A DNA stretch of 64,000 nucleotides. It comes from Bacteroidota bacterium. Its GTDB lineage: Bacteria > Bacteroidota > Bacteroidia > Chitinophagales > Saprospiraceae. The notes beneath the pieces were generated by a model. That model searched no databases. It saw only the letters and a list, made by a program, of their open reading frames with translations, and was not told where the DNA came from. This document shows positions 14,201 to 60,219 of the stretch, one piece after another. Position numbers and translations under genes: made by a program. The stretch lies in NCBI GenBank assembly GCA_039030655.1, contig JBCCDS010000029.1, positions 4,672-68,671 on the forward strand, read 5' to 3'. The stretch's first letter is position 1; every line of letters begins with the position of its first letter.

Positions 14201-17092
14201 ACCATCATCCACTACCGTAAAGCAGATGGTGGCAATCACCGTTCCGTCTGCAAAACTCAGGCCCAGGAATTCCGGGCTCTGGTCTACCCAGACCACCCGT
14301 AGTGCATCACTAGGCGAGTTAGTCACCTGCAGTGGGCTGAAAGCCGCTAGAAAATCAGGATTAGCCGTGAAGTTGTCGTAAGTCAGGAAGGACTCATCGA
14401 AATTGACACTGAACTGGAAAGCCGTAATGTCGGTAAAGTTGGCCGTGGTAATATCCAGACAGACTTGAGCGCCAATGCCCCCAGCGCCATTTTGAACATC
14501 AAAGGTCAGATCATCGCTCATGACCATACAAGGATCACAGCTACCGCCACAGTCTACGCCGGTTTCATCGCCGTTTTGAATTCCATCATTACAAGTCGTA
14601 CAAGGTGCACAACTACCGCCACAATCGACACCAGTTTCGTCACCGTTCTGGATGCCGTCGTTACAGGTCGGGGTCATCCCATCTCCATTAACGATGCCTC
14701 CTTGGGTGCTTACCGCCAGCGCCATACCGCTATTATCGGAAGCCGTGATGGAGATCGGTGAGCCGCTTATATCTACGAAAGTCTGACCATCGTCAACAAC
14801 CGTAAAGCAAATCGTAGCGATCACCGTTCCGTTAGGGAAGCTCAGGCCTTGGAATTCCGGGCTCTGATCCACCCAGACAACTCGTAAAGCATTGCTCGGT
14901 GAATTAGTCACCTGCAGTGGGCTGAAGTTGGCGATAAAATCGGGGTTGGCCGTAAAGTTGTCGTAAGTCAGGAAGGACTCGTCAAAATTGACACTGAATT
15001 GGAAGGCGGTTACATCCGTGAAGTTAGTCGTCGTGATGTCGAGACAAACCTGCGTACCTACATCGCCATCACCAGGCTGAATCGTGAAGCTCAAATCATC
15101 ACCTCCAGCACAAGGAGAGCAATTAGGGCCACCACAGTCAACGCCCGTCTCGCCATTGTTCTGGATGCCATCATTACAGCTTTCGCAAGGCGCACAAGAG
15201 CCACCGCAGTCAACACCAGTCTCTGTTCCGTTCTGGATACCGTCGTTACAAGTAGGCGTCGTTCCACCATTGACGGAACCACCCTGCGTATCCACCGGTA
15301 AGGCCTGTCCCATATTGTTGGCTGCCGTAATGACGATTGGGCTATTGGTAATGTCTACCGTAGTCGGGCCATCATCTACAATCGTGAAACATAGCGTAGC
15401 CAGGACCGTACCATCAGGGAAGGTAAGTCCCAGGAATTCCGGAGACTGATCCGTCCACACAATCCGCAGTACACCATCCGCTGAGTTAGTTACTTGCAGT
15501 GGACTAAAATTATTGGCGAAAGCCGGATTGGCCGTAAAGTTGGTATAGGCCAGGAAGTCGGTATCAAAATTGACACTAAACTGCCAGGCAGCAATATTGG
15601 TATAATTACTAGTGGTCAGGTCTAGGCAGATCTGCTGTCCGGCGTTGCCTGATCCATCAGCGATGGTAAAGCTCAGATTGTCGCTACCATTATCGCAGGG
15701 TGCACAACTGCCACCACAATCTACTCCCGTCTCCGTTCCATTCTGGATGCCGTCGTTACAGCTTGGTCCGCCGCCATTACCGGCATTGATCGTGCCATCG
15801 TCGGTGATTACGTTGAAGGGTACACCGTTGTTATTAAAGGCCTCGATTGGAATGGGCGTATTCGAAAAGACGACGTCCGTCTCACTATCGTCGAGGATGC
15901 GGAAACAAACCGAAAGCAAGATGGACCCATCGGGCAGGCTTGCACCCAGGTTATCCGCATTCTGGTAGAAATAGCTCACCCGAACTTGACCAGGCGTTCC
16001 ACTAGGTTGACTGGCCTGAATAGTAGGAAAAGCCAGGTTGTCGAAATTTTGGAATTGTAGGCGACTAGCGTCGTAGTTGATACTGAACTGCATCGCAGCC
16101 ACTGCTTCAAAAGCATTGACGGTGAGGTCCAGACAGACCGTAGTGCCGATGGCACCGTTACCATCTGACAAATCAAAGATGAAATCGTCACTGCCTCCTG
16201 CTGGTGGTGATGCCGTACCCGATAGCACGTCGGTTCCAATCATAGCCCCCGCGTCGGTGGTCGCGGAGCCGGCCGCGCCTTCGCTGATCACCTTCGTTCC
16301 TGGATCAGAATAGTTAGCGGGAATAGCATGACAGAGGCTAAAGGCCGTCAAGCCATCAGCTAGCGTTACCCCAGGCGTACTTCCGTGGGTATAACTGATC
16401 AAGGCAGTATTGTTCCCACTCACCGTCAGGTTGCCGGTCAGACTGGGGTGCACATTACTAATCGTAGGGGTGGCCACTGCTCCCAGTGGGTTACTCACCG
16501 TAAACTGGAAACTGGTGATCGCAGAGAACTCGGCGACCGTTACATCCTGACAAATAGTTTGCCCGGGCATAATTTGACCATTGCCGAAGTCGAAGACGAG
16601 ATCATTAGGTACCGCACCATTACCTTCATTGACCAGGCCATTGTTGTAGGTCACCCCGGCAATCGGCCCCGATTGGCCACTCACTTCTGCGGTAATCGGC
16701 GTGCTGGAGAAGACCACATTCGTCTCTTCATCAGACAGCACGTTGAAGCAAACAGTACCAATCAGAAAGGGGTCGGCGCTGGTAAAGCCTTCCAAGCCGA
16801 AAACGGACCATTGCACCCGGATATCTCCAGGGGCCGGATTGCTGATATTAACGGGAGCTCCAATCAGGATTTCTCCGGTTCGAGAGCCGTACTCCAGCAC
16901 ACTGGCGTCGTAATTGACGCTGAACTGAAATCCAAAGATGTTGTCGAAGTTGTCGCCGGTTATATCGAGACAGAGCTCCGTTCCAGTAGCGGCATCTTCA
17001 CTTTCGATCGTGAGAATTGGCACCTGAGAGAATAGTTGCGTAAAGCTGAACAAGCATAGGATGCCCGCCAGTAAACTGTAGCGTCCTTCCAT
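8249..17092 (-). CDS. Giant SprB-like cell-surface protein: 11 cohesin-like modules, 15 four-Cys motifs, about 11 SprB repeats and a T9SS type-B C-terminal sorting domain
   Basis: Uninterrupted 2947-aa ORF with a signal peptide ending LFSFTQLFSQ. The recurring FQFS[VI]N[YF]D motif marks the cohesin-like modules. Other repeats are the motif CxDGxxNxxETGxDCGGxxCxxC (x15) and SprB-type repeats (C.G..NGSI.L...GG..PY.Y.W) over roughly nt 8590-11110. The C-terminus ITPNGDGLNEAF...YNRWGQLVY...GPYYYIL matches the gliding-motility/type-B CTD. Confidence 0.9.
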   Translation of the reverse strand: MEGRYSLLAGILCLFSFTQLFSQVPILTIESEDAATGTELCLDITGDNFDNIFGFQFSVNYDASVLEYGSRTGEILIGAPVNISNPAPGDIRVQWSVFGLEGFTSADPFLIGTVCFNVLSDEETNVVFSSTPITAEVSGQSGPIAGVTYNNGLVNEGNGAVPNDLVFDFGNGQIMPGQTICQDVTVAEFSAITSFQFTVSNPLGAVATPTISNVHPSLTGNLTVSGNNTALISYTHGSTPGVTLADGLTAFSLCHAIPANYSDPGTKVISEGAAGSATTDAGAMIGTDVLSGTASPPAGGSDDFIFDLSDGNGAIGTTVCLDLTVNAFEAVAAMQFSINYDASRLQFQNFDNLAFPTIQASQPSGTPGQVRVSYFYQNADNLGASLPDGSILLSVCFRILDDSETDVVFSNTPIPIEAFNNNGVPFNVITDDGTINAGNGGGPSCNDGIQNGTETGVDCGGSCAPCDNGSDNLSFTIADGSGNAGQQICLDLTTSNYTNIAAWQFSVNFDTDFLAYTNFTANPAFANNFSPLQVTNSADGVLRIVWTDQSPEFLGLTFPDGTVLATLCFTIVDDGPTTVDITNSPIVITAANNMGQALPVDTQGGSVNGGTTPTCNDGIQNGTETGVDCGGSCAPCESCNDGIQNNGETGVDCGGPNCSPCAGGDDLSFTIQPGDGDVGTQVCLDITTTNFTDVTAFQFSVNFDESFLTYDNFTANPDFIANFSPLQVTNSPSNALRVVWVDQSPEFQGLSFPNGTVIATICFTVVDDGQTFVDISGSPISITASDNSGMALAVSTQGGIVNGDGMTPTCNDGIQNGDETGVDCGGSCAPCTTCNDGIQNGDETGVDCGGSCDPCMVMSDDLTFDVQNGAGGIGAQVCLDITTANFTDITAFQFSVNFDESFLTYDNFTANPDFLAAFSPLQVTNSPSDALRVVWVDQSPEFLGLSFADGTVIATICFTVVDDGQTTVDITGSPISITASNNLGQSQDVFVDGGIVNGSTTETCNDGIQNNGETGVDCGGPNCDPCIDPPNCTDGIQNGNETGIDCGGPDCMPCNVMETCDDGILNNGEIEVDCGGPNCAPCNSLLTFDLQDGNGGVGSQVCLDITTANFTDITAFQFSVNFDEAFLSYDNFTANPDFLAAFSPMQVTNSPSNALRIVWVDQSPEFMGLSFPDGTVIATLCFTVLDDDQTPVDITGTPISITASNNLGQSQDVFVSGGIVNGGTTESCNDGIQNNGETDVDCGGPNCAPCPTCNDGVQNGNETGVDCGGPDCDPCINPPTCEDGIQNGQETGVDCGGPDCAACPPTETCDDGILNNGETQIDCGGPNCAPCSDNLTFRVLNGEGGVGTEICLDVVTTNFTDVTAFQFSINFDEAFLNYNSFTANPDFLAAFSPMQVTNSPSDALRVVWVDQSPEFMGLTFPDGTVIASFCFTIEDDCTTTVEITGDPISITGSNNLGQSLAIDVFPGTVNAGCGGGPTCDDGIQNGQETGVDCGGPDCPACPPTCEDGIQNGQETGVDCGGPDCPECPGDCEDGIMNGQETGIDCGGPDCPACPPNEITLTVSNGTGMVGEQVCLDINAFDFNTITDFQFSINYDPTKLQFAVATPNGALTGLTASGATPGQIIVNWSAASGSVTLPNGETILDICYTVIEACTTPVTITNMPQVIEANNAANDDVTVNVSGGVVNNGIPCNDQPDNLIFDIGDGSGGVGSEVCLDITVENFDELTELEFSVSYNSTVLSYNNATNFNLTGLSNANITNPSPGALSFVWESGTPAGETLADGSVMVSICFEVLEAAQTMVTPTAVPTVIIAGNANGQNVGVVAMGGIVNSGFPPPGSGLTFLIGTAEGMVGETVCVPVTVFNFEAVSSFQFGITFDPAVITFQNANVPNCPLDGGPVFDCIPGLFPFLITNPGDDDVRVAWPSPDGLEKTVADGTQVFELCFEIQSEECGPVSFTNQQIAVEFFGPDGQIPATLINGGINCSDAPMIVDADVQGTSCEGDTDGSISLTITGGANLEYEWSPNVGNGPVVMDLPPGVYTVIVTNPNTNETASATYTVNAPPPFSVNAVDVQDVRCNGEANGSITIATLGGNGPYIIDWSGNLPDGMLQQTNLAAGFYSVTVTDGNGCSRELIDIEVEEPEILVASGSITNISAGTDGAIDLLVNGGTPEYTYNWSGPGGFSAGTEDIAGLTMVGTYCVTVTDSRMCERAQCFQVSEGLVLVDQTINSGCVGANNGSIDITVAGGNGECSFVWTDSEGMVIGMMEDIDGLEPGTYSVEITCGTESINSNFTLFAPTPILANGSTSSSTNGDNGTIDLSPTGGAAPYTFEWRVDGETDIFAMTEDVDGLAPGVYCVTINDQSSCATEECFTIDSQPMSIDGTTASPSLCADSLGSAELIIINGTGPYTAVAQPGDLMGSSDSDTLIIALPAGDFVITVTDGQGNQSTTNVTITAPDAIVVAGTTIVSDTEDPACVGSITLNVEGGSPMYTVSWNQPDLDGLQVSELCAGTYAATITDANGCQQIVSDLNVGELTEEGETTEVACPGDATGSVDLTVAGGVGPYTFSWTEAGSTDVIAETEDLTEVAAGDYTVVITDNTGASLVRTYTISSANGFFVTANVTTDYNGFDVSCAGFSDAQLVAEVSGTGNYTYEWRRNGGLVSMDAIVNDAPAGTYDLRVISEDGCIVDEQLEVIAPSPIELVANITDASCEDARDGRIELVATGGAGDYDYLWEDGRITPAIPFLRPNRYSVEVMDANGCLAQGTFSVNAPEALTATVSSTDADDGCNGTIDVTVNGGNGLYTYEWPQLMGQTGATAEGLCPGVYTIEVSDDARCQTIIVEVTVRDRRFPCLSERNVITPNGDGLNEAFILFCTDGADFNDNVLEIYNRWGQLVYKVNDYDCSQDGGLNCFEGRNNDGSELPEGPYYYILDYANPSGDRLQKRGSLTILRE
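12434..15760 (-). repeat. In-frame tandem module array inside the giant gene (cohesin-like module plus 1-4 Cys motifs per unit)
   Basis: The landmark CTGAA[CT]TGGAA (complement of the FQFS codons) recurs at 12321, 12990, 13737, 14409 and 14994, with variants at 15576 and 16083. Spacings are 669, 747, 672, 585, 582 and 507 nt. The first and last Cys motifs lie at 15695-15760 and 12434-12503. Confidence 0.85.
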
Positions 17093-17177: not shown

Positions 17178-17948
17178 CTAGCCGCCGGTAAAGACGACTT
17201 TTTGACTCAGTTGTAGCTCGTCGCCGGTCACCTCAATTAAGTAGGTGCCCGCGGCGGGCATATCGCTAGCTTCCAAAGATACTTGGTTCACACCAGCATC
17301 CAATTCCAGCGATCGTTGTTGCACCAAACGCCCTTGCAGATCATAGATACGCAACTGGGCCGTTTGTTCTTTTATCATTTCAATACGCAGCTGGGTCGCC
17401 ACGGAGAAGGGGTTGGGAAGGGCGGTCATTTGTACTTCCGCAGGTGTTCCCGTCAGGTCTGGCATTACGCGGATAGTGGCACCAGTAAACTGGGCAGGCA
17501 TTTCCTGACCTACACCGTTGCCCACTAAACAGCGGGTGGGTTGCTCGCTGAAATTGAGATGAACTTCCTCTCCTACCCGAGCCAATACTTTAAAGCGTAG
17601 ACTATAGAGTATAGTCCCGTCTTCCAGGTCATAGCCTTGCAGGGCCGGATCCATAAAAGTATAAGCCAACCGCCCTGCATCGGTCTGACGCAGATTGAAA
17701 TTAGCCGTAGCGGTAGCACCTAATGCTAAGTTCTTTACTTCCTGAAAACTTAATTGCTCTGGATCCCAATTGAGGGAAAGTTGAGCAGCTGCGACTGCAC
17801 GAAAGTCTTCTACAGACAAGTCCAGCTCCACGAACTGATCGGGAGCGGCTTCTACATCAGGAATGAAGAAGGTAGTAAGCTGTGCCTGGAGCTGGCTAGC
17901 CAATAGCAGCGGCAGGACTCCAAGGAAGCGGAGTAGCATTCTGCTCAT
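17178..17948 (-). CDS. Small secreted single-cohesin-domain protein with T9SS type-A C-terminal sorting domain
   Basis: Signal peptide MSRMLLRFLGVLPLLLASQLQAQ (ATG at 17948; the ORF track starts at a GTG at 17954). Cohesin-like signature VAAAQLSLNWDPEQLSF. C-terminal LPNPFSVATQLRIEM...IYDLQGRLV matches the Por secretion tail. Confidence 0.8.
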   Translation of the reverse strand: MSRMLLRFLGVLPLLLASQLQAQLTTFFIPDVEAAPDQFVELDLSVEDFRAVAAAQLSLNWDPEQLSFQEVKNLALGATATANFNLRQTDAGRLAYTFMDPALQGYDLEDGTILYSLRFKVLARVGEEVHLNFSEQPTRCLVGNGVGQEMPAQFTGATIRVMPDLTGTPAEVQMTALPNPFSVATQLRIEMIKEQTAQLRIYDLQGRLVQQRSLELDAGVNQVSLEASDMPAAGTYLIEVTGDELQLSQKVVFTGG

Positions 17949-23128: not shown

Positions 23129-23672
23129 ATGAGATTACGATGTACGTGAGATAAATTGCAAAAATTCATTTTTCGTGCTGAACTGATTTTTTGCGTTGGT
23201 GAATTCAGCCAGCACTTTACGACGAAACCGCTACTGCTAGGCAGTATACCCGGTGAAAAGACAGACGAAGGGGAGGGAAACAAGGGCAGCTCAATTCACC
23301 ATAGTCTTTGCCGACGTAGGCAAATGCGTGGTGTAAATGAGTGCTTGGGTATGTTTTAAGTCGCCTATCAAAACCAGGTATAGCTACTTTCACAAGTTGC
23401 TATTCTAGGCAAATATAAGCGGTAGCAGTTGAATTCCCGGACTTTTAACATACAATTCTGATGCTTGCCACTACAGTTTACCTCTAGCCACTAATAAAAT
23501 GGCCGATGCTGTGCAGGGCGTTTACACCTGCGGAAGTACCTATACAAATAGATATAAGTAAATCACCATCTGGAGTTTGGCGACCCAAGAATAGCTCATT
23601 TCAGTTAGACAATAGTTCTCAAAAATCAGCCGTGGATGCTTAACTAATTACCTCCTTTTTTGTTAATTAAGC

Positions 23673-24120: not shown

Positions 24121-24639
24121 TTGGACACAAAAACCATCTACCTCGGTGCTGGCTGCTACTGGAGCAAGGAGTATCACTTAAGCCGTCTGGTGGGTGTGCT
24201 GGGCACCGAGGTAGGTTTTGCCGGCGGGCAGCTCGAAAACCCCAGCTATCTGGAAGTCTGTGGCAAAAAGACTGGACATGCAGAAGTGGTTGCCGTGCGC
24301 TATCAGCCTAAGCTGTTGAGTTTTTACTGCCTTTTACAGCACTTCTTCCAGCTACATCCCGCTCAGGTCGATCGACGGAAAAATGGTGGCCAGTACCGGT
24401 CGGCTATCTTCTTCCCCAACATAGCTAACAAATTGGAAATCAGTACCATAAATTGGATGTTCGGTTTTTTGACTTCCGCAGGTCTATCCCCTACTACCGA
24501 AGTGAAAGAATCCGTTTCGTTTTTTCGGGCTATGGATCGGCATCAAGGCTACTGCGAGCGCCTAAGCAGGCCACCGAAAAACGGGCTTGGTTTTCCGCTC
24601 TACTCCTGGCCAGCAGCGCCCAGCGGCCTTATTTTATAA
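24121..24639 (+). CDS. msrA: Peptide-methionine (S)-S-oxide reductase
   Basis: 172 aa with active-site GAGCYW, then GHAEVV and GGQYRSAIFF motifs. Only a TTG start (24121) is available upstream of the catalytic Cys, because there is an in-frame stop at 24106. Confidence 0.8.
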   Translation: MDTKTIYLGAGCYWSKEYHLSRLVGVLGTEVGFAGGQLENPSYLEVCGKKTGHAEVVAVRYQPKLLSFYCLLQHFFQLHPAQVDRRKNGGQYRSAIFFPNIANKLEISTINWMFGFLTSAGLSPTTEVKESVSFFRAMDRHQGYCERLSRPPKNGLGFPLYSWPAAPSGLIL

Positions 24640-29891: not shown

Positions 29892-31184
29892 ATGCAACTC
29901 CTTCAACAACTAGATCGTCGAGATTGGACATCCGTGCTTCAGCGCCCTGCCAAAGACCTCAGTCAGCTTCAAAGCCCCGTCAAGGAGATTATGCAAGCCG
30001 TGCGGGATGGAGGCGATGCTGCCGTGCGGGATTTTACTGCCCGTTTTGATGGCGTTGAGGTCGATAGCCTTCGGGTACCCCAGGAACAGTTAGCAAAGGC
30101 AGGACAACAATTGAGCTCCGATTTACGGGAGGCCATTCAAATAGCGAAGGCCAATATTGAAGCCTTTCACCGCGCTCAACTGACCAATCCGCAACCTCTT
30201 GAGACGATGCCGGGGGTAAGCTGCTGGCGCAAGCAAGTAGGCATTGACAAGGTAGGGCTGTACATTCCCGGTGGCACCGCTCCGCTTTTCAGCTCCGTAC
30301 TGATGTTAGCCATTCCGGCCGTGATTGCCGGCTGTCAGGAAATTGTGCTCTGCTCCCCCCCACAGAAGGATGGCCAGATTCATCCAGCTACTTTGTACGC
30401 AGCACATTTGTGTGGACTTCCGCAGGTGTATCGTATCGGCGGAGCTCAAGCCATTGCTGCGATGACCTACGGAACAGAATCAGTACCCGCCGTTTATAAA
30501 CTTTTTGGCCCTGGAAATGCCTACGTTACGGTGGCTAAACAGCTGGCCTTTCTAGATGGCCTCGCCATTGATATGCCGGCAGGGCCTAGCGAAGTACTCG
30601 TTTGTGCTGATCAGGGTGCTAACCCAGCCTTCGTTGCCGCTGATTTGCTCAGTCAGGCTGAGCACGGCAGCGATTCTCAGGTGGTCCTACTGACCTTCGA
30701 TCTAGCGCACAGCAAGGCTATCCTACAAGAAATTGACCGGCAGCTTGCCGCACTCCCTCGTCGGGAAATGGCCGCTGCTTCGCTCAGCAATAGTGTAGCC
30801 ATTGTGGTCAATAGCCAGGAAGAAGCCGCCGAACTCATCAATCACTACGCGCCGGAGCACTTGATTCTCAGTATGACCAATGCCCGGCAATTTGCTGAAA
30901 GCATCCGCAATGCCGGTTCGATATTTCTGGGCTATTACACGCCTGAAAGTGTTGGTGACTACGCCTCTGGCACCAACCATACCCTACCGACTTACGGCTA
31001 TGCGCGCCAGTACAGTGGCGTGAGCCTGGACTCTTTTGTCAAGCAGATCACTTTTCAAGAGTTGACGCCTGCAGGACTGCAATCACTGGGTCCTGCGGTA
31101 GCAACACTGGCCGAAGCAGAAGGTCTAGCTGCCCACCGATCGGCCGTAAGTCTTCGTTTAGCGGCTTTAAAAGTCAAGCCCTAA
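29892..31184 (+). CDS. hisD: Histidinol dehydrogenase
   Basis: 430 aa with IGGAQAIAAMTYGT, SQAEHGSDSQ and DYASGTNHTLPT signatures. Confidence 0.92.
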   Translation: MQLLQQLDRRDWTSVLQRPAKDLSQLQSPVKEIMQAVRDGGDAAVRDFTARFDGVEVDSLRVPQEQLAKAGQQLSSDLREAIQIAKANIEAFHRAQLTNPQPLETMPGVSCWRKQVGIDKVGLYIPGGTAPLFSSVLMLAIPAVIAGCQEIVLCSPPQKDGQIHPATLYAAHLCGLPQVYRIGGAQAIAAMTYGTESVPAVYKLFGPGNAYVTVAKQLAFLDGLAIDMPAGPSEVLVCADQGANPAFVAADLLSQAEHGSDSQVVLLTFDLAHSKAILQEIDRQLAALPRREMAAASLSNSVAIVVNSQEEAAELINHYAPEHLILSMTNARQFAESIRNAGSIFLGYYTPESVGDYASGTNHTLPTYGYARQYSGVSLDSFVKQITFQELTPAGLQSLGPAVATLAEAEGLAAHRSAVSLRLAALKVKP

Positions 31185-34170: not shown

Positions 34171-34902
34171 ATGCTCATCATTCCCGCAATCGATATAATT
34201 GACGGCCAGTGTGTGCGACTAACCCAGGGTGACTATGCACAAAAAAAAGTCTACAATGAAGACCCCGTGGAAGTCGCCAAAGCCTTTGAGGCAGCCGGAT
34301 TGACCCAGCTACATGTGGTTGATCTAGACGGCGCTCGCGGAGGAGGTATCGTCAACTACAAAGTACTAGAGCGGATTGCCAGTAATACCCAGCTGCATAT
34401 CGATTGGGGAGGAGGCATGAAAACGGACGACGATCTGCGCATTGCCTTTGAAAGTGGAGCGCAGCAAGTAACCGGCGGTACCATTGCCGTAAAGCAGCCC
34501 GAAGTCTTTCTGAATTGGCTAGAACGATACGGGGTCGAACGGATCATCCTCGGGGCAGACGTCAGAGGTCAATATATTGCAGTAAGCGGATGGGAAGAAT
34601 CCAGTGAGCGGGAGCTATTCGAGTTTTTGGCGGACTACGTAGCTCGCGGTGTTCGCTACACCATCTGTACGGACGTAGCTAAAGATGGTCTCCTGCAGGG
34701 TACTGCTCGAGAGCTGTACGCCCAAATCAGAGAAGCGCAGCCAGCACTAAAATTAATTGCTAGTGGAGGGGTCACTGATGTGGCGGATCTGGAAGACCTG
34801 CGGAAGTCCAAATGCTACGGAGCGATCGTGGGAAAAGCAATCTACGAGGGGAGAATAAGCCTGTCCACACTAGCTGATTTTTCAAGTACACCAAACCACT
34901 AG
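34171..34902 (+). CDS. hisA: Phosphoribosylformimino-AICAR-P isomerase
   Basis: 243 aa with [25 protein letters not shown] and [11 protein letters not shown] motifs. Confidence 0.9.
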
Positions 34903-40406: not shown

Positions 40407-40753
40407 GCTAGGTTTTATTTGGGCCTACGAAGGTAACTTGCTACTTTTTAAGCGCCGTTGCTTTTTATAGTTCATTAACAAGCTTTTTCACTTCCGCAGG
40501 TGTAAGCGTCAAGCGTGTTTATTGATTTCCAATCGTTAAGAGGTTTGCTAAAAAATTAGAACCTAGTAATAACTGAGGACCTCGAAGAGTCCGAACGCAG
40601 GAGGATCTTTGAGCGTTCAGATAGTCCTCGGAATTGAGCGTCTAGCTATATCCATAGAGCACCATAGCTTTTGAAACTAGTAAGTCGGCTCAACTGTCGC
40701 ACCCAACCATTTCCAAATATGTCTCATCTTAGTGGTACAACTACTACCGATTT

Positions 40754-47639: not shown

Positions 47640-47694
47640 TCAAAGAACTGGAGTCATCCCAAACTCTGAGCCGCTGTTCTAGCCTTATAGTTTG

Positions 47695-47911
47695 AAGGCT
47701 GCGCAGCAGCGCTCGACCATTACCCACTATTTTTTTAGAACGCGGATCTTTTCTTTTAGGAAGGTAAATGCCTGGGGCAGTGTAGAGGCAATAATGCGCC
47801 AGTGCGCTCAGCCAGTCGTGAGTAGCAGCATGGGAGCGGATGACCACTCACCTGCGGTTCGTTGCACGGATTTCGGTTGCTGCTAGGAGCTTGGTCTACA
47901 GTTTATTCAGT
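47695..47911. repeat. Intergenic repeat, copy 1 (~217 bp)
   Basis: Aligns along its whole length with 48088-48300 (same orientation, estimated by eye at 75-80 percent identity). Begins AAGGCTGCGCAGCAGCGCTCG and ends CAGTTTAT[TC]CAGT. Confidence 0.8.
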
Positions 47912-48087
47912 GGAGGAATCTGCGCGCAAAACTTCAGTTTTGGGTAGATCCGCTATACATCCAGTACTACGAAGAACGCTTTGGAAGAAGCCCATGAAAT
48001 AAACCGACTAGCCTCCAAATCAAAGCCCCAAAGTTGGCCCTGGCCAACATCTGCGGTAATCCGCGAACATCTCATCTGCGCCCAAAA

Positions 48088-48300
48088 AAGGCTGCGCAGC
48101 AGCGCTCGGCCACTATCCACCATTTTTTGGAATACGGATCTTTTTTATTGGGAAGGGAAATGCCGGGGGTAGTATAGGGTCAATACGCCAATGCACTCAG
48201 CCAATGGCGGGAAGCAGCATTGGAGCGGATGAGCACTCACCTACGGCTCGTTGCACGGATTATGGTCGCTGCTGGAAGGTAAGCCTCCAGTTTATCCAGT
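48088..48300. repeat. Intergenic repeat, copy 2 (~213 bp)
   Basis: Direct repeat of 47695-47911, offset by 393 bp. Both copies lie in the 705-bp non-coding gap between accC and rlmB. Confidence 0.8.
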
Positions 48301-48344
48301 TAATTGAATTTTCCATTCTCCCTAAAATTAGGGATGACTCCTAT

Positions 48345-49085
48345 TTATAGGCGAGCTTTCATGCTTTCGTAGAGCATGATCCCGGCGGCTACCGAAACAT
48401 TAAAGCTGTTCATGGTGCCGACCTGCGGAAGTCTAAAACGCCAATTTGCAGCCCGCGCAACCCCAGTACTGATACCTTCTCCTTCCGCGCCTAGCACCAA
48501 ACAGAGCGGAGCCTGTAGATCTAGTTCGGCCAGGTCCTGTTCCGCCTGGAGATCGCTGGCAGCTACTTGGAGACCACATTCTTGTAAGTACTCGATGGTA
48601 TTGATGAGGCTCTTTTCCCGGCAGACGGGTAAGCGAGCCAGAGCGCCAGCCGAGCTTTTCACCGCATCGGGCGTCAAACCAGCGCTATTCTTTTGGCCAA
48701 TAATGATAGCTTGGGCACCACATATTTCCGCCGAGCGGGCAATGGCGCCCAGGTTGCGCACATCCGTCACCCCGTCTAATAACAACAATAAGGGGGTTTG
48801 GCCCTGCTCATAGATAAAGGGCAGGATATCTGTAATCTTCTGGTAGGGAGCCGCCGCCATTTGAGCGGCTACCCCCTGATGGTTGCCTTTAACCATCCGC
48901 TGGAGTTTCTCCTTAGGCACCATAGTCAGTGGGACTTCACGATCACGACATAGGTGGCGCAACTCTTTTTCGAGCTCTCCGCGGGTGCCTTGCAGAAGAT
49001 AGACCTTATCAACCGGTTGCCCGGACTGTAAGGCTTCAATAACCGGATGACGGCCGTAGATTAATTGCTGGCGACTGGACTTCAT
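48345..49085 (-). CDS. rlmB: 23S rRNA (guanosine-2'-O)-methyltransferase RlmB (SpoU/TrmH family)
   Basis: LIYGRHPVIEAL N-terminal L30e-like domain and SPOUT motifs (LLLLDGVTDVRNLGAIARSAE, LVLGAEGEGIS, NSFNVSVAAGIMLYE). The start is placed at the ATG at 49085, which overlaps the upstream stop as ATGA. The ORF track allows 49112. Confidence 0.85.
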   Translation of the reverse strand: MKSSRQQLIYGRHPVIEALQSGQPVDKVYLLQGTRGELEKELRHLCRDREVPLTMVPKEKLQRMVKGNHQGVAAQMAAAPYQKITDILPFIYEQGQTPLLLLLDGVTDVRNLGAIARSAEICGAQAIIIGQKNSAGLTPDAVKSSAGALARLPVCREKSLINTIEYLQECGLQVAASDLQAEQDLAELDLQAPLCLVLGAEGEGISTGVARAANWRFRLPQVGTMNSFNVSVAAGIMLYESMKARL

Positions 49086-52647: not shown

Positions 52648-53859
52648 TTACCATTGTTTAGACAGGTAGGGGTAGCGTTGTTGGTAAGCGGCCTGTACCA
52701 GCTCGGTGAGTCGGGTGCGTAACAAATCGATGTTTTCGCGGGTGTGTGCAGAGATAAAGATAGCTTCTTGGCCGAATTGATGTTGCATACTACCACGTAA
52801 AGCACTTTCTACCTCCTCGCGACCTTCCTCATCTAGTAACTCATCGTAGTTCTTTTCGCGGAACAAATCGATCTTATTACAAACCAGCAGCGTTGGCTTA
52901 TCGTCCGCTTTGAGTTCGGCCAGCAATTGTTGTACCGTACGGATGTGGTCTTCGTGTTGCGGGTGGGCAATATCTACTACGTGCAGTAAAATGTCGCTCT
53001 CTCGTACTTCATCCAAAGTAGAGCGAAAGCTCTCGATTAGGTGAGTGGGTAGCTTGCGAATAAACCCAACGGTATCACTCAACAAGAAGGGCGTACGATC
53101 GAAGGCCAGTTTGCGCACAGTCGTGTCGAGGGTAGCAAAGAGCTTATTCTCGGCAAAAACATCACTCTTAGTGAGCAAATTCATCAGTGTACTCTTCCCT
53201 ACATTGGTGTAACCCACCAGTGCTACGCGAATAAGTTGTCCACGGGTCTTACGGCGGGTCTCGGCTTGGCGGCCGATTTTATCCAGGTCTTTTTTGAGCT
53301 TGGCGATCTTGTCTCGGACAATACGACGGTCCGTCTCGATCTCCGTTTCACCCGGTCCACGCATCCCGATCCCCCCTCGCTGACGCTCCAAGTGCGTCCA
53401 CAGACCTCGAAGGCGCGGCAGTAGATACTGCATCTGAGCGAGTTCTACCTGCTTTTTGGCTTGTGAGGTTTGTGCCCGTCGCGCGAAAATATCCAGGATC
53501 AAGGTGGTCCGGTCTATAATCTTAACCTTCAACTGCTCTTCCAGGATATTCGTTTGCTTGCCACTCAGATCGTCATCGAAGATAACCATAGTGATGTCTT
53601 CGTGTCGTTCGATGTAGTCCCCAATTTCTTCCACTTTCCCTTTACCGACGAAGGTGCGATTGTCAGGATGCGCCAGTTTTTGCAGGAAGCGCTTTTGGGT
53701 GACCGCCCCGGCGGTGAGCGCCAGAAACTCTAATTCGTCTAGGTGCTCCTGCACCAATTCTTCGGACTGCTGCCCGAGAATAGCGCCCACGATGATGGCG
53801 TATTCGGTTGCCTGTTTTTGCCCCGTTTTCTGTTTACCTACGGTCCACTCTGATGCCAT
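52648..53859 (-). CDS. hflX: GTPase HflX
   Basis: 403 aa with an HflX N-domain, G1 motif LVGYTNVGKSTL, DTVGFIRKLPTHLIESFRSTLDE, and NKID. Confidence 0.92.
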   Translation of the reverse strand: MASEWTVGKQKTGQKQATEYAIIVGAILGQQSEELVQEHLDELEFLALTAGAVTQKRFLQKLAHPDNRTFVGKGKVEEIGDYIERHEDITMVIFDDDLSGKQTNILEEQLKVKIIDRTTLILDIFARRAQTSQAKKQVELAQMQYLLPRLRGLWTHLERQRGGIGMRGPGETEIETDRRIVRDKIAKLKKDLDKIGRQAETRRKTRGQLIRVALVGYTNVGKSTLMNLLTKSDVFAENKLFATLDTTVRKLAFDRTPFLLSDTVGFIRKLPTHLIESFRSTLDEVRESDILLHVVDIAHPQHEDHIRTVQQLLAELKADDKPTLLVCNKIDLFREKNYDELLDEEGREEVESALRGSMQHQFGQEAIFISAHTRENIDLLRTRLTELVQAAYQQRYPYLSKQW

Positions 53860-53960
53860 GCGTACTTTTTAAATCAAGATCATCCCGCTAGGGGTACTAA
53901 AAGACTCATAAGCGACCGATAGTACCAAGAATAACTAAAACAGTCTAGCGTCTTTTGTTT

Positions 53961-54146
53961 GTACTTCCGCCCGGTACGGGCCCGTCTGGGCAGGTGTATT
54001 GGGGAACCGAGACCATCCTAGCAGCGCCAGGTATTGCGAGAAACGAGAGTCGAGATGGATGAAATGCACAGGTCTCGACTCTCGACTCTAGGAACCCTGA
54101 TTTAGTCGGGATGGTCTTGATTCTGCTTTTACACCTGCGGAAGTAC
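53961..54146. repeat. 186-bp MITE-like structured element bounded by inverted copies of the 18-mer GTACTTCCGCAGGTGTAA
   Basis: The right end TTACACCTGCGGAAGTAC (54129-54146) is intact. The left end is GTACTTCCGC (53961-53970) plus AGGTGTA (53992-53998), split by a 21-nt insert. Nested perfect stems are GAGAGTCGAGA / TCTCGACTCTC (54045-54055 / 54073-54083) and AGACCATCC / GGATGGTCT (54010-54018 / 54109-54117). Confidence 0.6.
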
Positions 54147-54757
54147 CAATTACAAACCCTAAAAACACCAATAAGTTCCCGCCGGAACAGAATCAATCCC
54201 TAAACCTATTTACCGCTCCTGACCATATTGCCTCCGCACCCTAAAAGGGTTTTTATTTTCCGGGCAGGACTAGACCATTACGCGACTTAGTCCGTTTACT
54301 TTGCAACTCCTCATAAGGAGAGAAGCACCTGAGACGAATTTTCGAGGTTGAATGAACGTAGTAGCTCAGTAGAACTTTTTGATACTTTAATAGAAGTAGT
54401 AATAGTCCTGGAGCGAATTTCCCCAGCATTTTCCACGCCCCCAGTTTAGTGGGCATTCCCATGAAAGTAATGAGTGTTTGACCCTCCCCTTGCGATCCCC
54501 TCGCAAGTGGAACAATAGTGCCTATGAGCAGTCAGTAGCTCGCCTATTCAAGCTAGGCGTCACTTGACCTCAGCAGCAGTATTGGGGCTAGCTCTATGCA
54601 CATTTCCTAAGGCTTTATCAAGGGTAGCTACACCCTTTGACTGGCACTGTAATAGCGCAGTGACTTACTGATATCCTATTGCCAATCACCAAGCAACCAA
54701 CCGAGCGACTGCACATGGTCGCGAGATAATAAACCAACTCAAAGACACGTAATTCAA

Positions 54758-57265
54758 ATGTTTCGTACATCCCAACTACTACTAAGCGGATTAATTCTCT
54801 TGCTGCAAATTCCCTCACTTTTAGCCCAGCAATCACTCCGGGCTATACAACAACAACCAACAGCCGTCAACCAGGCTATGATCGATGAAACGGAAGCGGA
54901 AAGTCCTCTCTTCTCCGTTTTGCCAGCAGCAGCACGCTCCAGTCAGCTGGCCAGTGAATTATCCGATTACCAGCTCTTGCAGATTAACACAGAGGCCCAA
55001 TCCGAATTGATCGCTGCCGCTCCCCAAGAACTGCGCTTAGCATTGCCTGCGGGCCCCAATGGGGAAGTCCTGGACTTGCAGCTCGAGCGGGTTCACTTTC
55101 TTGCCGAAGGCTTTCAGATACGGGAAGCCATTTCTGGTCAGTTACTGGATGCCAGTGTAGTCGGCCACCATTATCGTGGGCAGCTAGCCAATGATCCCAA
55201 TAGCGCTGTAGCCTTGAGTATCAGCGAAGCTGGAGGTATTCAGGGAGTAATCGCTCAGGCCGATGGCGGCAATTTGGTCCTTGGGCAAGTAGATGACCCC
55301 ACTTTGGGACCGGAGACCTACGTCCTCTACCCCGACGAACAACTAGCCGACCAAAACAGCTTCAGTTGCCAAACCCCCGACACCGAAGTAGAATACGATC
55401 CAGAAATGCTGCGAATCAACCCCGACCAAGTTGCGGGGCGATCTGATAATTGTGTACGCTTCTTTCTGGAAGTAGACCACGACATCTATCAGGACAAAAA
55501 CGGTACCGCCGGTGCGGCAGCTTACATCAGTGCAGCATTCAACGAAGTAGCCGCTCTCTACGCCACAATCGGGGTCGGTATTACCATCAGCGAGATCTTG
55601 GTCTGGGAACAGCCCAGTCCCTACCAGAGTAGCAGCTCTAGTGGTATGCTGTCTGCCTTTCAGGCTACGCGCACCAACTTCAACGGAGATTTAGCCCAGC
55701 TGGTCTCTTATAAAGCCAGTGGCGGCATTGCTATCGTAAATGGACTTTGCCACCCTTACGCTGGCGCAAAGCTGAGTTTTTCCAGCATCCGCAGCAGTTT
55801 TGCTGCGACGCCTACCTACAGCTGGACCGTAATGGTTATGGCCCATGAAATGGGGCACCAACTCGGTAGTCAACACACCCACGCCTGTGTCTGGAATGGA
55901 AACGGCAGCGCAATTGATGGCTGCCCCAGTTTTACCGAAGGCAACTGCCCCGTCCCCGGTATCCCAGCGGGTGGAGGCAATATCATGTCTTATTGCCACC
56001 TGACGCAAGCGGGGATCAACTTCAATGTTGGTTTTGGTCAGCAGCCAGCCGCCGTGATTTACAATACGGTTGCTGCAGCCAGCTGTGTCGGAACGGGCTG
56101 CGGTGGTGGCAATCCACCCGTCGGTGGCGGTGGTGGCAACCCGCCCGTTGATCCTCCAGTAGAGGAATGTGAGGACAACATCGTATACCTACGATTGGCT
56201 CCCGACAACTACGGCCCTGAAACAACCTGGCGCATCATCGATGGTACTGACGCCACCGTGGCCAGTGGCGGTCCCTATGGTAAAATGCTAGCTGGTACCC
56301 TTATCCTAGATACCCTCTGCCTGCCCAATGGCTGTTATAATTTTGAAATGCTGGATAGCTACGGCGACGGGATTTGCTGTGAGTATGGAGACGGAAGTTT
56401 CCGAATCACCGATGAAGATGGTCAGGTACTCGTAGATAACGATGAATTTGAGGAGGAGATCAGCGTCAACTTTTGCTTACCCTACACTGAGGAGCCAGGG
56501 GGAGACGATTGCGTCAACGTCAGCTTTGTTGACTATCCACCGATTAGCTACGGGATGAATCAGGACCAAGGGCAGATTACCGTTCAACAAAACGGCAATC
56601 AAATCTATCTGCGCAATAATGCCTGGAAGGCCATTGAGTTCCCTTACCTGCTGACGCCAGAAACGGTGATCGAATTTGATTTCCGGTCTACGATCGAAGG
56701 GGAAGTTCACGGAATTGGCTTCGACGATAATCTTTCCATTTCCTCACAGTTTACCTTCCGTTTGCACGGTACCCAGAGCTGGGGTAACGGCATTTATAAT
56801 ACCTACAACGGTAGCGGACAGTGGCAACACTTCGTGATTCCCGTCGGTGAATACCTACTGGGTGAAGCCTCTCATATGTTCTTTGTAGCCGACCATGATA
56901 ACGGCCTACGCAACGGTAACAGTTATTTTCGTAATATTAGGGTCTACGAAGGCCAGTCCTGTGACGCTGGCAGCAACCTGAATGGTCAGGCCAGCGCTGA
57001 AACAGTGGCACCTTCCGAAGCACTAGGCCTCTGGCCCAATCCTAATCTTGGACGTTTCAACGTAAGTCGACCTTTAAGCAGTCAGGACCTAGGCGGTGAG
57101 TACGAAATTGTATCTGCCACCGGTCAGCTAATGCGTAGTGGTCAACTGGAGGCTGGTACAACCAACTGGCAGCTTAATGTGCAGGACTTAACACCCGGCA
57201 CTTACTGGTTGCGCTACCGTGACGCCCAGGGCGAACATAGCGAGCGCTTTAACTTGCAGCAATAA
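54758..57265 (+). CDS. Secreted reprolysin-like (M12B-type) zinc metalloprotease with Cys-rich and beta-sandwich-like domains and a T9SS type-A sorting domain
   Basis: 835 aa with a signal peptide, HEMGHQLGSQH (HExxHxxGxxH), a Gly/Pro linker GGGNPPVGGGGGNPPVDPP, a Cys-rich module ...CYNFEMLDSYGDGICCEYGDGSF..., and a C-terminal LWPNPNLGRFNV...YWLRY tail. Confidence 0.8.
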   Translation: MFRTSQLLLSGLILLLQIPSLLAQQSLRAIQQQPTAVNQAMIDETEAESPLFSVLPAAARSSQLASELSDYQLLQINTEAQSELIAAAPQELRLALPAGPNGEVLDLQLERVHFLAEGFQIREAISGQLLDASVVGHHYRGQLANDPNSAVALSISEAGGIQGVIAQADGGNLVLGQVDDPTLGPETYVLYPDEQLADQNSFSCQTPDTEVEYDPEMLRINPDQVAGRSDNCVRFFLEVDHDIYQDKNGTAGAAAYISAAFNEVAALYATIGVGITISEILVWEQPSPYQSSSSSGMLSAFQATRTNFNGDLAQLVSYKASGGIAIVNGLCHPYAGAKLSFSSIRSSFAATPTYSWTVMVMAHEMGHQLGSQHTHACVWNGNGSAIDGCPSFTEGNCPVPGIPAGGGNIMSYCHLTQAGINFNVGFGQQPAAVIYNTVAAASCVGTGCGGGNPPVGGGGGNPPVDPPVEECEDNIVYLRLAPDNYGPETTWRIIDGTDATVASGGPYGKMLAGTLILDTLCLPNGCYNFEMLDSYGDGICCEYGDGSFRITDEDGQVLVDNDEFEEEISVNFCLPYTEEPGGDDCVNVSFVDYPPISYGMNQDQGQITVQQNGNQIYLRNNAWKAIEFPYLLTPETVIEFDFRSTIEGEVHGIGFDDNLSISSQFTFRLHGTQSWGNGIYNTYNGSGQWQHFVIPVGEYLLGEASHMFFVADHDNGLRNGNSYFRNIRVYEGQSCDAGSNLNGQASAETVAPSEALGLWPNPNLGRFNVSRPLSSQDLGGEYEIVSATGQLMRSGQLEAGTTNWQLNVQDLTPGTYWLRYRDAQGEHSERFNLQQ

Positions 57266-58461: not shown

Positions 58462-60219
58462 TTAAGGGACCACCCGCCCCACCGGATACAGATTATGCGT
58501 AGGCTCATAAAATTCCGACCGACGATAAATGAAGAGGAGCTGCCCGTAAGCATCGGCGGCCAGATCGGGATCAGCGGCCTTCGCTGTAGCCAATTCGGCC
58601 GCTAGATCAGGATTACTGGCCAACAGTTCTTCGGCAATGTCTTCGAAGACGTAGGGCGAGAAGTATTCCTTCTGCTGTAGGATCGCATCGAAGAAATTCC
58701 AGGCAAAGTAGCTATCGGGAGCCTGTGGTTCCAAAGTTTCGACGATGTAGCGCACGCCCGGTTGATCGGTGTAGACCAGATAATCTCCGGCTCGGTAGGT
58801 GACTTCGCGGGTAACGGGACGAAGCTGGACATTATAGTGTAGGTAGTGGCCCTCGTAGGGACTATTACGCGACTCGTAGCTATCGATATAGTACTGTTCT
58901 ACTTCCAGCGTGGTGTCACTGCTTAACTCTTGCAAGACGATACCATTGTTTTGGAGACGCTCAATGACTTCACCCCAGGCGAAGGGGATACAGTACGCAA
59001 ATGGGCGATCAACGGTAGTTGTGGTACTATAATAGTCATATAGCGGCACGGGTTTGACGTAGGGGGCCTCTCGATCGTAGTAGAGGCGATCCTGGCCAGT
59101 AATCGCACTTGGTTTTTGTTTGGCTTCGTAGCCTTTAAATTGGAGCGTGTCGGACCTGCGGGAGTCCAATTCCCAATTCAAAGCCAAGCTATCCGCAGCA
59201 CGGTCTTGAGCGATTGCTTCAGCTCGGGCCGACTGGATTTTCTCCCGATCGCGAGCCACCAAGTCTACGGCCGACTGCATAAACTGATAGACCGACTCCG
59301 AGCGATCGCCAAAGGGCTTGAACATATGGGTCTCGGGCATGAAACCGATGCTGTGATGCAGGGCCGCGTAGCCCGAAGAGTAGCGAGGTAGATCGAGGAA
59401 GCCGGCGATCCCTTCATCGGGGGTAGATCGTACATAAACATAGGGGGTCAAATCCCAGCCACGTACGGGTAGATTCTGATAAAAATGCGGCAACATTTCT
59501 TCTTTCAGGTAGCTGGCCAATGGAGCGCTGAGTTTGTTATGTTGGGTGGCAATCAGCGTAAGCGTGTACTGATAATCAGCCCCGTTGGAGGTATGGTTGT
59601 CGATAAAAACCTCAGGCTGCCAGTCGGTAAATAAGCGGTTGAAGCTACGGGCATTGCGGGAGTCACACTTGATAAAGTCCCGGTTGAGGTCGAGGTTGCG
59701 TGCGTTGCCCCGAAAGCCGTGCTCCAGGGGACCGTTTTGATTAGCGCGGCTATCGCGACCGCGATTCAGGACGCCTCCGATGCTATACATGGGAATAAAT
59801 ACCAACACTACTTCATCAGGAAAAGGAAAATCTTCCGGCAGTTGCAGGTAGTCACGCACCAGTCGCATGGTCGCATCTACTCCACAGGGCTCGCCGGCAT
59901 GAATGGCATTATTGACGAAGAGAATAATTTTATCTGCTGCCCGAGCCTCTTCTGCCGTATTGATGCCCTCATTGGAAAGCGTGCCGTAGAGTAAGGGATA
60001 GCCACTATCGGTCATACCGGCCTCCTGCAGACTGAAGCGACTGGGATAAGCCTCGGCCAATTGCTGATAGAAAGCTACAGACTGAGCGTGGGAAGCGGTC
60101 GTGTTATGTGCTTCGTCTTGCTCGTAGGGAGTGAGCAGGAATTCCAGGTCAGGATCAGTAGCGGGTTGACAGGTGGTGAGGAAGAGAATAAGGAGGAGGG
60201 GGTAGATGGGTAGTTTCAT
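58462..60219 (-). CDS. M14 family zinc carboxypeptidase
   Basis: 585 aa with a signal peptide, NNAIHAGEPCG (HxxE zinc ligands) and NRDFIK/NHTSNGADY blocks of the M14 fold, plus a long C-terminal extension. Confidence 0.75.
   Translation of the reverse strand: MKLPIYPLLLILFLTTCQPATDPDLEFLLTPYEQDEAHNTTASHAQSVAFYQQLAEAYPSRFSLQEAGMTDSGYPLLYGTLSNEGINTAEEARAADKIILFVNNAIHAGEPCGVDATMRLVRDYLQLPEDFPFPDEVVLVFIPMYSIGGVLNRGRDSRANQNGPLEHGFRGNARNLDLNRDFIKCDSRNARSFNRLFTDWQPEVFIDNHTSNGADYQYTLTLIATQHNKLSAPLASYLKEEMLPHFYQNLPVRGWDLTPYVYVRSTPDEGIAGFLDLPRYSSGYAALHHSIGFMPETHMFKPFGDRSESVYQFMQSAVDLVARDREKIQSARAEAIAQDRAADSLALNWELDSRRSDTLQFKGYEAKQKPSAITGQDRLYYDREAPYVKPVPLYDYYSTTTTVDRPFAYCIPFAWGEVIERLQNNGIVLQELSSDTTLEVEQYYIDSYESRNSPYEGHYLHYNVQLRPVTREVTYRAGDYLVYTDQPGVRYIVETLEPQAPDSYFAWNFFDAILQQKEYFSPYVFEDIAEELLASNPDLAAELATAKAADPDLAADAYGQLLFIYRRSEFYEPTHNLYPVGRVVP

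Follow-up and report, generated by a model that had tools for sequence, protein, structure and literature searches.

A clade-specific DNA word recurring through a marine Saprospiraceae genome frames a 186-bp intergenic hairpin

The 186-bp hairpin element at positions 53961–54146 of the 64-kb window (the whole stretch of DNA analysed here, to which all coordinates refer) is bounded by two inverted copies of a short word that recurs throughout the window. The genome-wide motif family behind these apparent terminal inverted repeats (TIRs) is the real finding, and represents a word resembling uptake sequences or repetitive extragenic palindromic (REP) sequences in a phylum where none has been described. 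The source is a marine metagenome, and the relatives of the HflX protein and the protease encoded on either side of the element point to the Saprospiraceae/Lewinellaceae (Bacteroidota). Judged from the analysis below, the element may be a locus-specific member, and the largest, of a mosaic repeat family confined to its clade, the word itself being a protein-read DNA signal kept by drive or selection and most likely uptake-sequence-like; belief and doubt in this reading are about evenly balanced. On this best reading, which we would neither press nor abandon, the element is neither a self-contained transposon nor a conserved RNA gene, the two identities between which a first-pass annotation had hesitated.

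The element occupies an 898-bp spacer between the divergent genes hflX (52648–53859, − strand) and that of an M12/reprolysin-like protease with a type IX secretion system (T9SS) tail (54758–57265, + strand). The earlier description of the spacer as a 900-bp gap free of open reading frames (ORFs) agrees with its length and with the lack of a called gene in the public assembly of the contig, but mechanical ORFs of 40–83 aa are present. As read from the sequence, the left terminus consists of GTACTTCCGC, the 21-nt CCGGTACGGGCCCGTCTGGGC, which contains the palindrome ACGGGCCCGT, and AGGTGTA; once the 21-nt insert is removed, it is complementary at 17 of 18 positions to the right terminus TTACACCTGCGGAAGTAC. 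Two perfect stems are nested inside, one of 11 bp (GAGAGTCGAGA, 54045–54055, with TCTCGACTCTC, 54073–54083) and one of 9 bp (AGACCATCC, 54010–54018, with GGATGGTCT, 54109–54117), and the inverted 18-mer termini, the split left copy and both stems lie where the first-pass annotation had placed them. Relatives for comparison were found in two seagrass metagenomes (X2 and X3; the run holding the source genome is X1) and in two contigs of one ENA assembly (L093 and L103), which are syntenic with the window over 19.9–41 kb and 43.3–60.3 kb and 76–81% (about 78%) identical to it in DNA. The parts of the element, and one related unit outside it, are the following.

53872–53887, + strand: third copy, AATCAAGATCATCCCG, of the local unit AAyCrAGAyCATCC (16 nt, 94%), outside the element and adjoining the hflX start; the L093 counterpart is TTTTAGACTCAAGATCGTCC
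53961–53970, + strand: first half of the left motif copy, GTACTTCCGC, preceded by the T-rich flank TTTGTTTG; lineage-specific, missing at the orthologous place in L093
53971–53991, + strand: 21-nt quasi-palindromic insert CCGGTACGGGCCCGTCTGGGC at the motif centre, unique in the window; the cut can be placed at CCG|C or one base on, at CCGC|
53992–53998, + strand: second half of the left motif copy, AGGTGTA, pairing with 54130–54136
54004–54018, + strand: left arm of the outer stem of the interior, made up of one AAyCrAGAyCATCC local unit; 15-nt arms, 87% complementary, with the perfect 9-bp core at 54010–54018
54034–54055, + strand: left apical-stem arm, 22 nt long and 82% complementary, with the perfect 11-bp core at 54045–54055; unchanged in the X3 homologue
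54056–54072, + strand: apical loop, the most variable part among homologues; the X2 and X3 loose ends run ...GAGAGTCGAGACGACGATAGCT and ...GAGAGCCGAGATTAAGACTA
54073–54094, + strand: right arm of the apical stem, holding the overlapping tandem TCTCGACTCTCGACTCT
54107–54123, − strand: right arm of the outer stem of the interior, where the AAyCrAGAyCATCC local unit is inverted (AATCAAGACCATCCCG on the − strand)
54129–54146, − strand: right motif copy TTACACCTGCGGAAGTAC, ancestral; its core ACCTGCGGAAGT is the reverse complement of ACTTCCGCAGGT

Fold prediction returned a single long hairpin for 53950–54160, with the 21-nt insert forming a side stem-loop. The predicted RNA of the + strand reaches −96.4 kcal/mol (z −7.55, with 0 of 200 shuffles as good), that of the − strand −88.6 kcal/mol (z −6.99), and the fold under DNA parameters −50.4 kcal/mol (z −7.49); the 8 kcal/mol by which the + strand is more stable come from G-U pairs. 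The hairpin arrangement at 53961–54146 is not chance.

The 18-mer terminus has 10 matches in the window at up to three mismatches, against 0.04 expected, and the 64 kb contain 11 exact copies of its core ACTTCCGCAGGT (complement ACCTGCGGAAGT), where about 0.008 would be expected (2 × 64,000 / 4^12), and four more copies at one mismatch. Counts of 10-, 12- and 14-mers across the window place the core first, above words from the internal repeats of a giant repeat-protein gene. Alignment of 15 copies gave an extended consensus of about 22 nt, wTTTGkACTTCCGCAGGTstaa, with TTTG in 11–12 of the 15, and the T-rich and A-rich flanks of the element belong to this extended motif. The density is about one copy per 4–5 kb, with 20 exact copies in 107 kb of clade DNA, which is a sample of the genome. 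Most copies are solitary, the only two inverted pairs in the window being the 186-bp element and a doublet at 4374–4440; the core is self-complementary at only eight of 12 positions, the solos have no local partner, and a GC-rich hairpin arises only in the 37-nt split form. Counted with the one-mismatch and split copies, nine copies point each way, which rules out a polar signal like Chi or the FtsK-orienting polar sequences (KOPS). The TTTG flank also recalls the −7 promoter box of Bacteroidota (TAnnTTTG), a candidate that was rejected: the TA part is not conserved, and the copies are genic in both senses. In a small sample, copies across 1679–59165 alternate in orientation at 14 of the 17 steps from one copy to the next (post hoc p about 0.006), and six of 15 gaps between copies, likewise few, measure 5.5–6.1 kb.

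Twelve of the 15 copies with at most one mismatch lie inside Pfam-supported genes (AnmK, MsrA, HisD, HisA, the MutL linker, SpoU/TrmH, GT9, M14-like, cohesin/T9SS and others), where each of the three codon phases and either sense of transcription is represented; therefore, the word acts as double-stranded DNA, not as a peptide or RNA, and a peptide motif is ruled out by the use of all frames and both senses. At the motif, the alignments with solved homologues are free of gaps in HisD (GLPQV vs. GIKNI, PDB 6an0), MsrA and SpoU (RLPQVG vs. the conserved SIPMAG), and HisA shows a one-residue indel. The gap-free alignments therefore indicate that genic copies were written by base substitution, unlike the spread of REP sequences or of miniature inverted-repeat transposable elements (MITEs). 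The solitary copies discussed here are listed below with their state in the syntenic contigs.

17434–17445, + strand: solo motif in the cohesin/T9SS-tail gene
23526–23537, − strand: solo motif in a divergent intergenic spacer; kept in L103 at 3634, where the adjacent sequence differs
24472–24483, + strand: solo motif in msrA; 12 of 12 bases kept in L103 at 4575
30416–30427, + strand: solo motif in hisD (GLPQV), substitutional; one mismatch at the orthologous L103 site
34796–34807, − strand: solo motif in hisA; 12 of 12 bases kept in L103 at 14856
40490–40501, + strand: solo motif in the divergent intergenic spacer upstream of mutL; kept in L103 at 20604
48421–48432, − strand: substitutional solo motif in the SpoU/TrmH methylase gene (RLPQV, within the conserved IPMxG knot region); 12 of 12 bases kept in L093
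57998–58009, + strand: solo motif in the GT9 glycosyltransferase gene; 12 of 12 bases kept in L093 at 13270
59154–59165, − strand: solo motif variant ACCTGCGGGAGT in the M14-like gene; the identical variant kept in L093 at 14500

Folding of the intergenic copies at 23526 and 40490 gave no long hairpin comparable to that of the element (z −0.7 and −0.6). A degenerate inverted partner (23378–23397, 16 of 20 positions complementary) lies 128 nt from the copy at 23526–23545 and completes a frame of about 170 bp, with an interior z of −0.74; it could be either a chance match or what is left of an eroded copy.

In L093 and L103, every one of the nine comparable window sites is occupied, eight with identical cores and one with a single change (107 of 108 bases), while the flanks at four of the nine, taken at 80 bases each, are 71% identical (228/320). 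The contig L098 from a sister sample, with an AnmK 58% identical to that of the window, carries a solo left AnmK copy at the same codons (TSAG) and a second exact copy within 5.7 kb. As nine sites are conserved, together with the AnmK site in L098, where synonymous sites are saturated, the word appears to be kept by selection or continuing drive. Its carriers form a narrow clade, consisting of L093, L103, L098 and the relatives in X2 and X3: 80 further Bacteroidota genomes lack the word in the 1.27 Mb compared around their hflX genes (HflX up to 75% identical), no alternative 'dialect' word was found at these 80 loci, the more distant protease loci L095–L097 have no motif, and nhmmer and blastn searches of the spacer against the 80 GTDB hflX loci found no homologue. 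The exact 18-mer gave 11 single matches in JGI metagenome contigs, which is the chance level. In viral scans, no pair of the 186-bp type was found, and the 17-mer gave four single matches, again the chance level.

A myovirus-like IMG/VR virus, represented by four near-identical contigs (L099–L102, GC 42.5%), has an exact inverted core pair 27 nt apart (L102 7014–7064), inside a 73-aa phrog_46 baseplate-hub/LysM-like gene just after the tape-measure gene, and also a one-mismatch copy with a GTAA flank (L102 10401–10412). If the size of the collection is roughly put at about 10^11 bases, about 0.01 such pairs would be expected in it by chance. The virus was not found in the runs X1–X4.

Uptake sequences number 765–1,892 per genome, with 34.5–65% of them inside ORFs (PMC2817400); inverted pairs of them are frequent, and two proteobacterial families, Neisseriaceae and Pasteurellaceae, are the only ones from which the class is known (bioRxiv 10.1101/2025.10.24.684340). 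The word described here shares with these uptake sequences (DNA uptake sequences, DUS, and uptake signal sequences, USS) a 9–12-nt core with flanking preferences, its standing as the most over-represented, dispersed genomic word in both orientations (here from a 107-kb sample), many ORF copies in all frames without indels, a clade-specific form with orthologous sites kept among related species, and inverted pairs that form hairpins. It differs in its density of about one per 4–5 kb versus about one per kb, in that the pairs of the window do not lie at gene 3′ ends, and in the presence of copy-paste modules and of a recurrent 21-nt insert in the core. We know of no uptake sequence in Bacteroidota. 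The cyanobacterial HIP1 is likewise a very abundant short word, found in coding and non-coding DNA and spread by nucleotide substitution, with a debated function; HIP1 is an 8-nt perfect palindrome, and the word of the window is asymmetric, 12–22 nt long and accompanied by doublets and mosaic modules.

The same DNA-level facts would also fit a site for an abundant chromosomal protein, or a 'self' mark for a nuclease or repair system (Chi-, HIP1- or NBS-like), with the hairpin as a by-product. The core is a partial palindrome (ACyTsCGsArGT), 21 bp of insert equal two helical turns, and the virus has its inverted pair within a tail gene, which would suit mimicry of the host signal in both directions. 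A Chi- or KOPS-like orientation skew is absent at nine versus nine, the density exceeds that of known site-specific nucleoid proteins more than 10 times, and to our knowledge there is no candidate protein. We regard such a site or mark as very unlikely, and on present data it is not distinguishable from an uptake-sequence-like word.

Comparison with L093 bears on how the element came about. Aligned by BLAST, the window and L093 are homologous up to 53907 and again from exactly 54133, where the right core begins; the 12-nt right core is identical at the orthologous place in L093 (9403), where the left copy and the interior are missing, and in place of the 225 nt of the window L093 has 179 unrelated, hairpin-rich nt. 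Within the replacement are five copies of TTTTAGACTCRAGA, spaced about 36 nt apart, and a perfect hairpin whose arms measure 24 bp. In the window, no second interior copy was found, and the depth in X1 over 54002–54100 is flat at 24.9, the single-contig value, rising several-fold only over both termini. The interior units AATCAAGAyCATCCCG and GAGAGTCGAGA were found only locally within the window, the GAGAGTCGAGA arms nowhere else in it, and the flanks TCTTTTGTTT and CAATTACAAA share no direct repeat that could be a target-site duplication. Since homology breaks at the right core, the interior is single-copy and partly of local units, and no target-site duplication is present, the right copy is ancestral and the rest grew locally in a fast-evolving, hairpin-prone spacer; the right copy is thus an old solo site, and the left copy and interior are lineage-specific later additions. 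The proposal that the element has the architecture of a MITE is borne out in so far as it is a small, non-coding, real and strong hairpin with terminal inverted repeats and has homologues elsewhere, and departs from a MITE in the missing target-site duplication, the unique interior partly made of local repeats, the right terminus that is an ancestral solo older than the element, and the use of a genome-wide word as terminus. The first-pass annotation had also allowed for a single chance arrangement with no other copies or homologues; homologues of the interior exist in the X2 and X3 metagenomes, with different flanks.

In L093, the five TTTTAGACTCRAGA copies lie upstream of hflX at 9178–9337, three direct and two inverted, with degenerate counterparts in the window at 53868–53925; the array may consist of regulator sites or of a palindrome-prone repeat. 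On the other side of the element, the 600-nt leader of the protease gene (54147–54757) can be aligned with L093 at about 73–80% identity, with a nearly identical block around 54421–54456, and may be a cis-regulatory leader or a small gene.

The suggestion that the termini are themselves insertion targets has been strengthened. Two X3 homologues have an uninterrupted left terminus (loose ends TTTTTGTACTTCC|GCAGGTGTA and CATTTGTACTTCCGTAGTGGTAT), and thus the 21 nt are a true insertion; the 37-nt split form (53958–53995, insert included) matches at least five other X1 contigs of the same depth (18–25x) with 2–4 mismatches and unrelated flanks. From these matches, the 21-nt insert is a recurrent, copy-pasted occupant of the motif centre (CCG|CAGG). 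Two further composite forms lie inside genes.

4374–4440, no strand assigned: short inverted doublet in the AnmK gene, with 31-nt arms (84% complementary) and a 5-nt loop; in-frame, an insertion of about 14–17 aa
42315–42357, − strand: 43-nt 'hairpin + motif' module in the MutL linker, 88% identical to L093 9372–9414

The AnmK doublet mirrors the history of the 186-bp element: here the left copy is ancestral, and the loop and the right copy are a later in-frame insertion of about 14–17 codons, common to a 93%-identical X2 relative and missing from all orthologues at up to 61% identity; at least four other short doublets of this type were found in X1 and two in X2. The counterpart of the MutL module in L093 lies at a non-orthologous place, the hflX spacer; one of the changes between the two, in the hairpin arm, is compensatory. 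The location of the 43-nt module in an inter-domain linker of MutL indicates that repeat modules can sit in frame in protein linkers. Rickettsia palindromic elements, palindromic repeats lying in frame in protein genes, are comparable to the AnmK loop and the MutL linker; they are insertions of 100–150 nt, and most copies of the present word are substitutions of 12–22 nt.

A rival reading is a non-autonomous mobile family of the MITE type or of the type of REPINs (REP doublet-forming hairpins), in which an enzyme acting in trans, e.g., a REP-associated tyrosine transposase (RAYT) or another HUH/Y1 transposase working on single-stranded hairpins, would recognise the motif, cut its centre and copy hairpin modules beside or into copies already present, the 186-bp element being one insertion. 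The recurrence of inverted doublets at several loci, the 21-nt palindromic insert at the same central position in at least six copies, the sharing of the 43-nt module between non-orthologous places, the in-frame insertions in the AnmK loop and probably the MutL linker, as with the Rickettsia elements, and the related interiors with different flanks in X2 and X3 all fit such a family. The units of REP/BIME (bacterial interspersed mosaic elements) and REPIN-RAYT systems are also similar in being about 20–40 nt long, in occurring as singlets, inverted doublets and mosaics with other small motifs, in forming hairpins and in persisting long at fixed places, and the GTAC head found here loosely recalls the GTAG head of REPs. 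However, REPs are extragenic, imperfect palindromes, whereas 12 of the 15 copies here are intragenic, the unit itself is not a palindrome and its core forms no hairpin; the solos in HisD, SpoU and MsrA are substitutions, not insertions, and solos are base-perfect at orthologous coding sites while their flanks diverge. The missing target duplication and the single-copy, partly local interior also disagree with it, and no transposase was seen in 107 kb of clade sequence. A REP/RAYT-like family is the main rival, accounting well for the modules but not for the indel-free, base-perfect solos in conserved codons, and as an explanation of the whole it is unlikely.

In the uptake-sequence-like reading, the functional unit would be the approximately 22-nt double-stranded DNA word wTTTGkACTTCCGCAGGTstaa with its 12-nt core ACTTCCGCAGGT, kept by biased uptake or recombination of word-bearing DNA, or by an equivalent protein-recognised signal. 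At the present locus, the right copy is the old solo, to which the inverted left copy and the interior, partly derived from inverted copies of the local unit AAyCrAGAyCATCC, were added later in the fast-evolving, hairpin-rich spacer; the left copy then received the 21-nt quasi-palindrome in its middle. The long hairpin, like the doublets and the 'hairpin + word' modules, may have arisen by word-anchored ectopic recombination or template switching beside existing copies, and the long hairpin is most likely a by-product, acting at most as a cruciform or an RNA hairpin between the divergent hflX and protease promoters. Going further, perhaps this uncultured marine Saprospiraceae/Lewinellaceae clade evolved its own DNA uptake sequence system, and the hairpin modules and the 21-nt insert are by-products of motif-anchored recombination of imported DNA; we offer this as a tentative possibility, short of probable. 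If true, it would be the first uptake sequence system outside Proteobacteria, with a word picked up even by a phage of the clade. An open question in the field is whether uptake-type words spread through genes by drive, selection or mobile DNA, and this lineage, which unites indel-free conserved solos in essential genes, mobile hairpin modules in protein linkers and a recurrent mini-insert at the motif centre, would let the question be compared across phyla. For annotators, it is a warning against taking every 'TIR-bounded hairpin' in such genomes for a transposon or an RNA gene.

Several observations weigh against an uptake-sequence-like word with the hairpin as a by-product. No competence gene was seen in the 107 kb of clade sequence, the word is 4–5 times less dense than in Haemophilus or Neisseria, and over 90% of the inverted DUS/USS pairs fall within predicted terminators, whereas one window pair lies between divergent gene starts and the other inside AnmK. 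The copy-paste behaviour shown by the 21-nt insert, by the 43-nt module and by the doublets is expected of mobile REP/MITE-like DNA and not of pure substitution drive, and the X2 and X3 homologues of the interior may be orthologous or ectopic copies. Furthermore, in the one partial homologue compared (X3, about 82% identical over 53990–54144), changes affect six of 61 paired versus 11 of 34 unpaired observable positions (Fisher p = 0.011). Because substitutions avoid paired positions and G-U pairs favour the + strand, the hairpin may be under selection, e.g., as RNA. Either selection on the hairpin, as RNA or as DNA, or a mechanical homogenisation of the two palindrome arms would fit this pattern.

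Another candidate is a structured RNA whose closing helix happens to consist of the two motif copies: a small RNA from the + strand, or an element in the 5′ leader of the mRNA for the protease or hflX. The strength of the fold (z −7.5) and its + strand bias of 8 kcal/mol through G-U pairs agree with it, as do the 11 of 17 observable changes at unpaired positions, the four of six paired changes that keep pairing, and the apical 11-bp stem, invariant in the X3 homologue beside a loop changed at 5–6 places. A terminator scan found a weak terminator-like hairpin with a T-run downstream (54238–54260), and L093 also has a strong, unrelated hairpin upstream of hflX. DNA-level maintenance of the palindrome would, however, yield the same substitution pattern. 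Rfam searches gave no relevant match at the gathering score for the whole window or at E up to 10 for 53800–54800. A sigma-70 scan, uninformative for promoters, showed no site adjoining the element, and neither the scan nor a reading of 53920–53965 offered a convincing promoter; no RNA-seq run holding the 186-bp stretch was found. Since the interior is missing from L093 while the adjacent 600-nt leader can be aligned, an old RNA gene is argued against. The first-pass proposal of a structured small RNA thus keeps its strong fold and its pair-avoiding substitutions but lacks an Rfam match and conservation of the interior in L093, where the neighbouring spacer is conserved; the small RNA reading is weak, and a structured RNA in general seems quite unlikely.

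The size, the 18-bp inverted repeats and the place between divergent genes, upstream of a secreted T9SS protease, also fit the usual layout of an inverton, a type of invertible promoter common in Bacteroidota, whose 130-bp interior would be flipped by a recombinase acting on the repeats and would switch the protease or hflX; the alternation of motif orientation in the window (14 of 17 steps) may be added to this. However, the same sites are solos in essential genes 1–6 kb apart, where inversion or deletion between them would harm, the flipping of a near-palindromic interior changes little, and the interior has no promoter of the TAnnTTTG type. No strand-switch joints were found in contigs, though contigs drop minor variants. 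An inverton is scarcely credible because of these sites, the near-palindromic interior without a promoter box and the lack of strand-switch joints.

Elsewhere in the window, two paralogous copies of about 220 nt (47690–47915 and 48083–48305), 81–90% identical and with a common predicted outer helix, sit in the 690-nt spacer between accC and the SpoU methylase gene; L093 has 226 unrelated nt there, and the pair has no Rfam match. The giant repeat-protein gene at 8249–17092 encodes 2947 aa with many diverged internal repeats (periods of 69 nt and roughly 600–750 nt) and adjoins a PorP/SprF T9SS gene (7201–8169). It is followed by the cohesin/T9SS-tail gene and a 1667-aa T9SS-tail gene, which together make up a large cluster of secreted adhesins.

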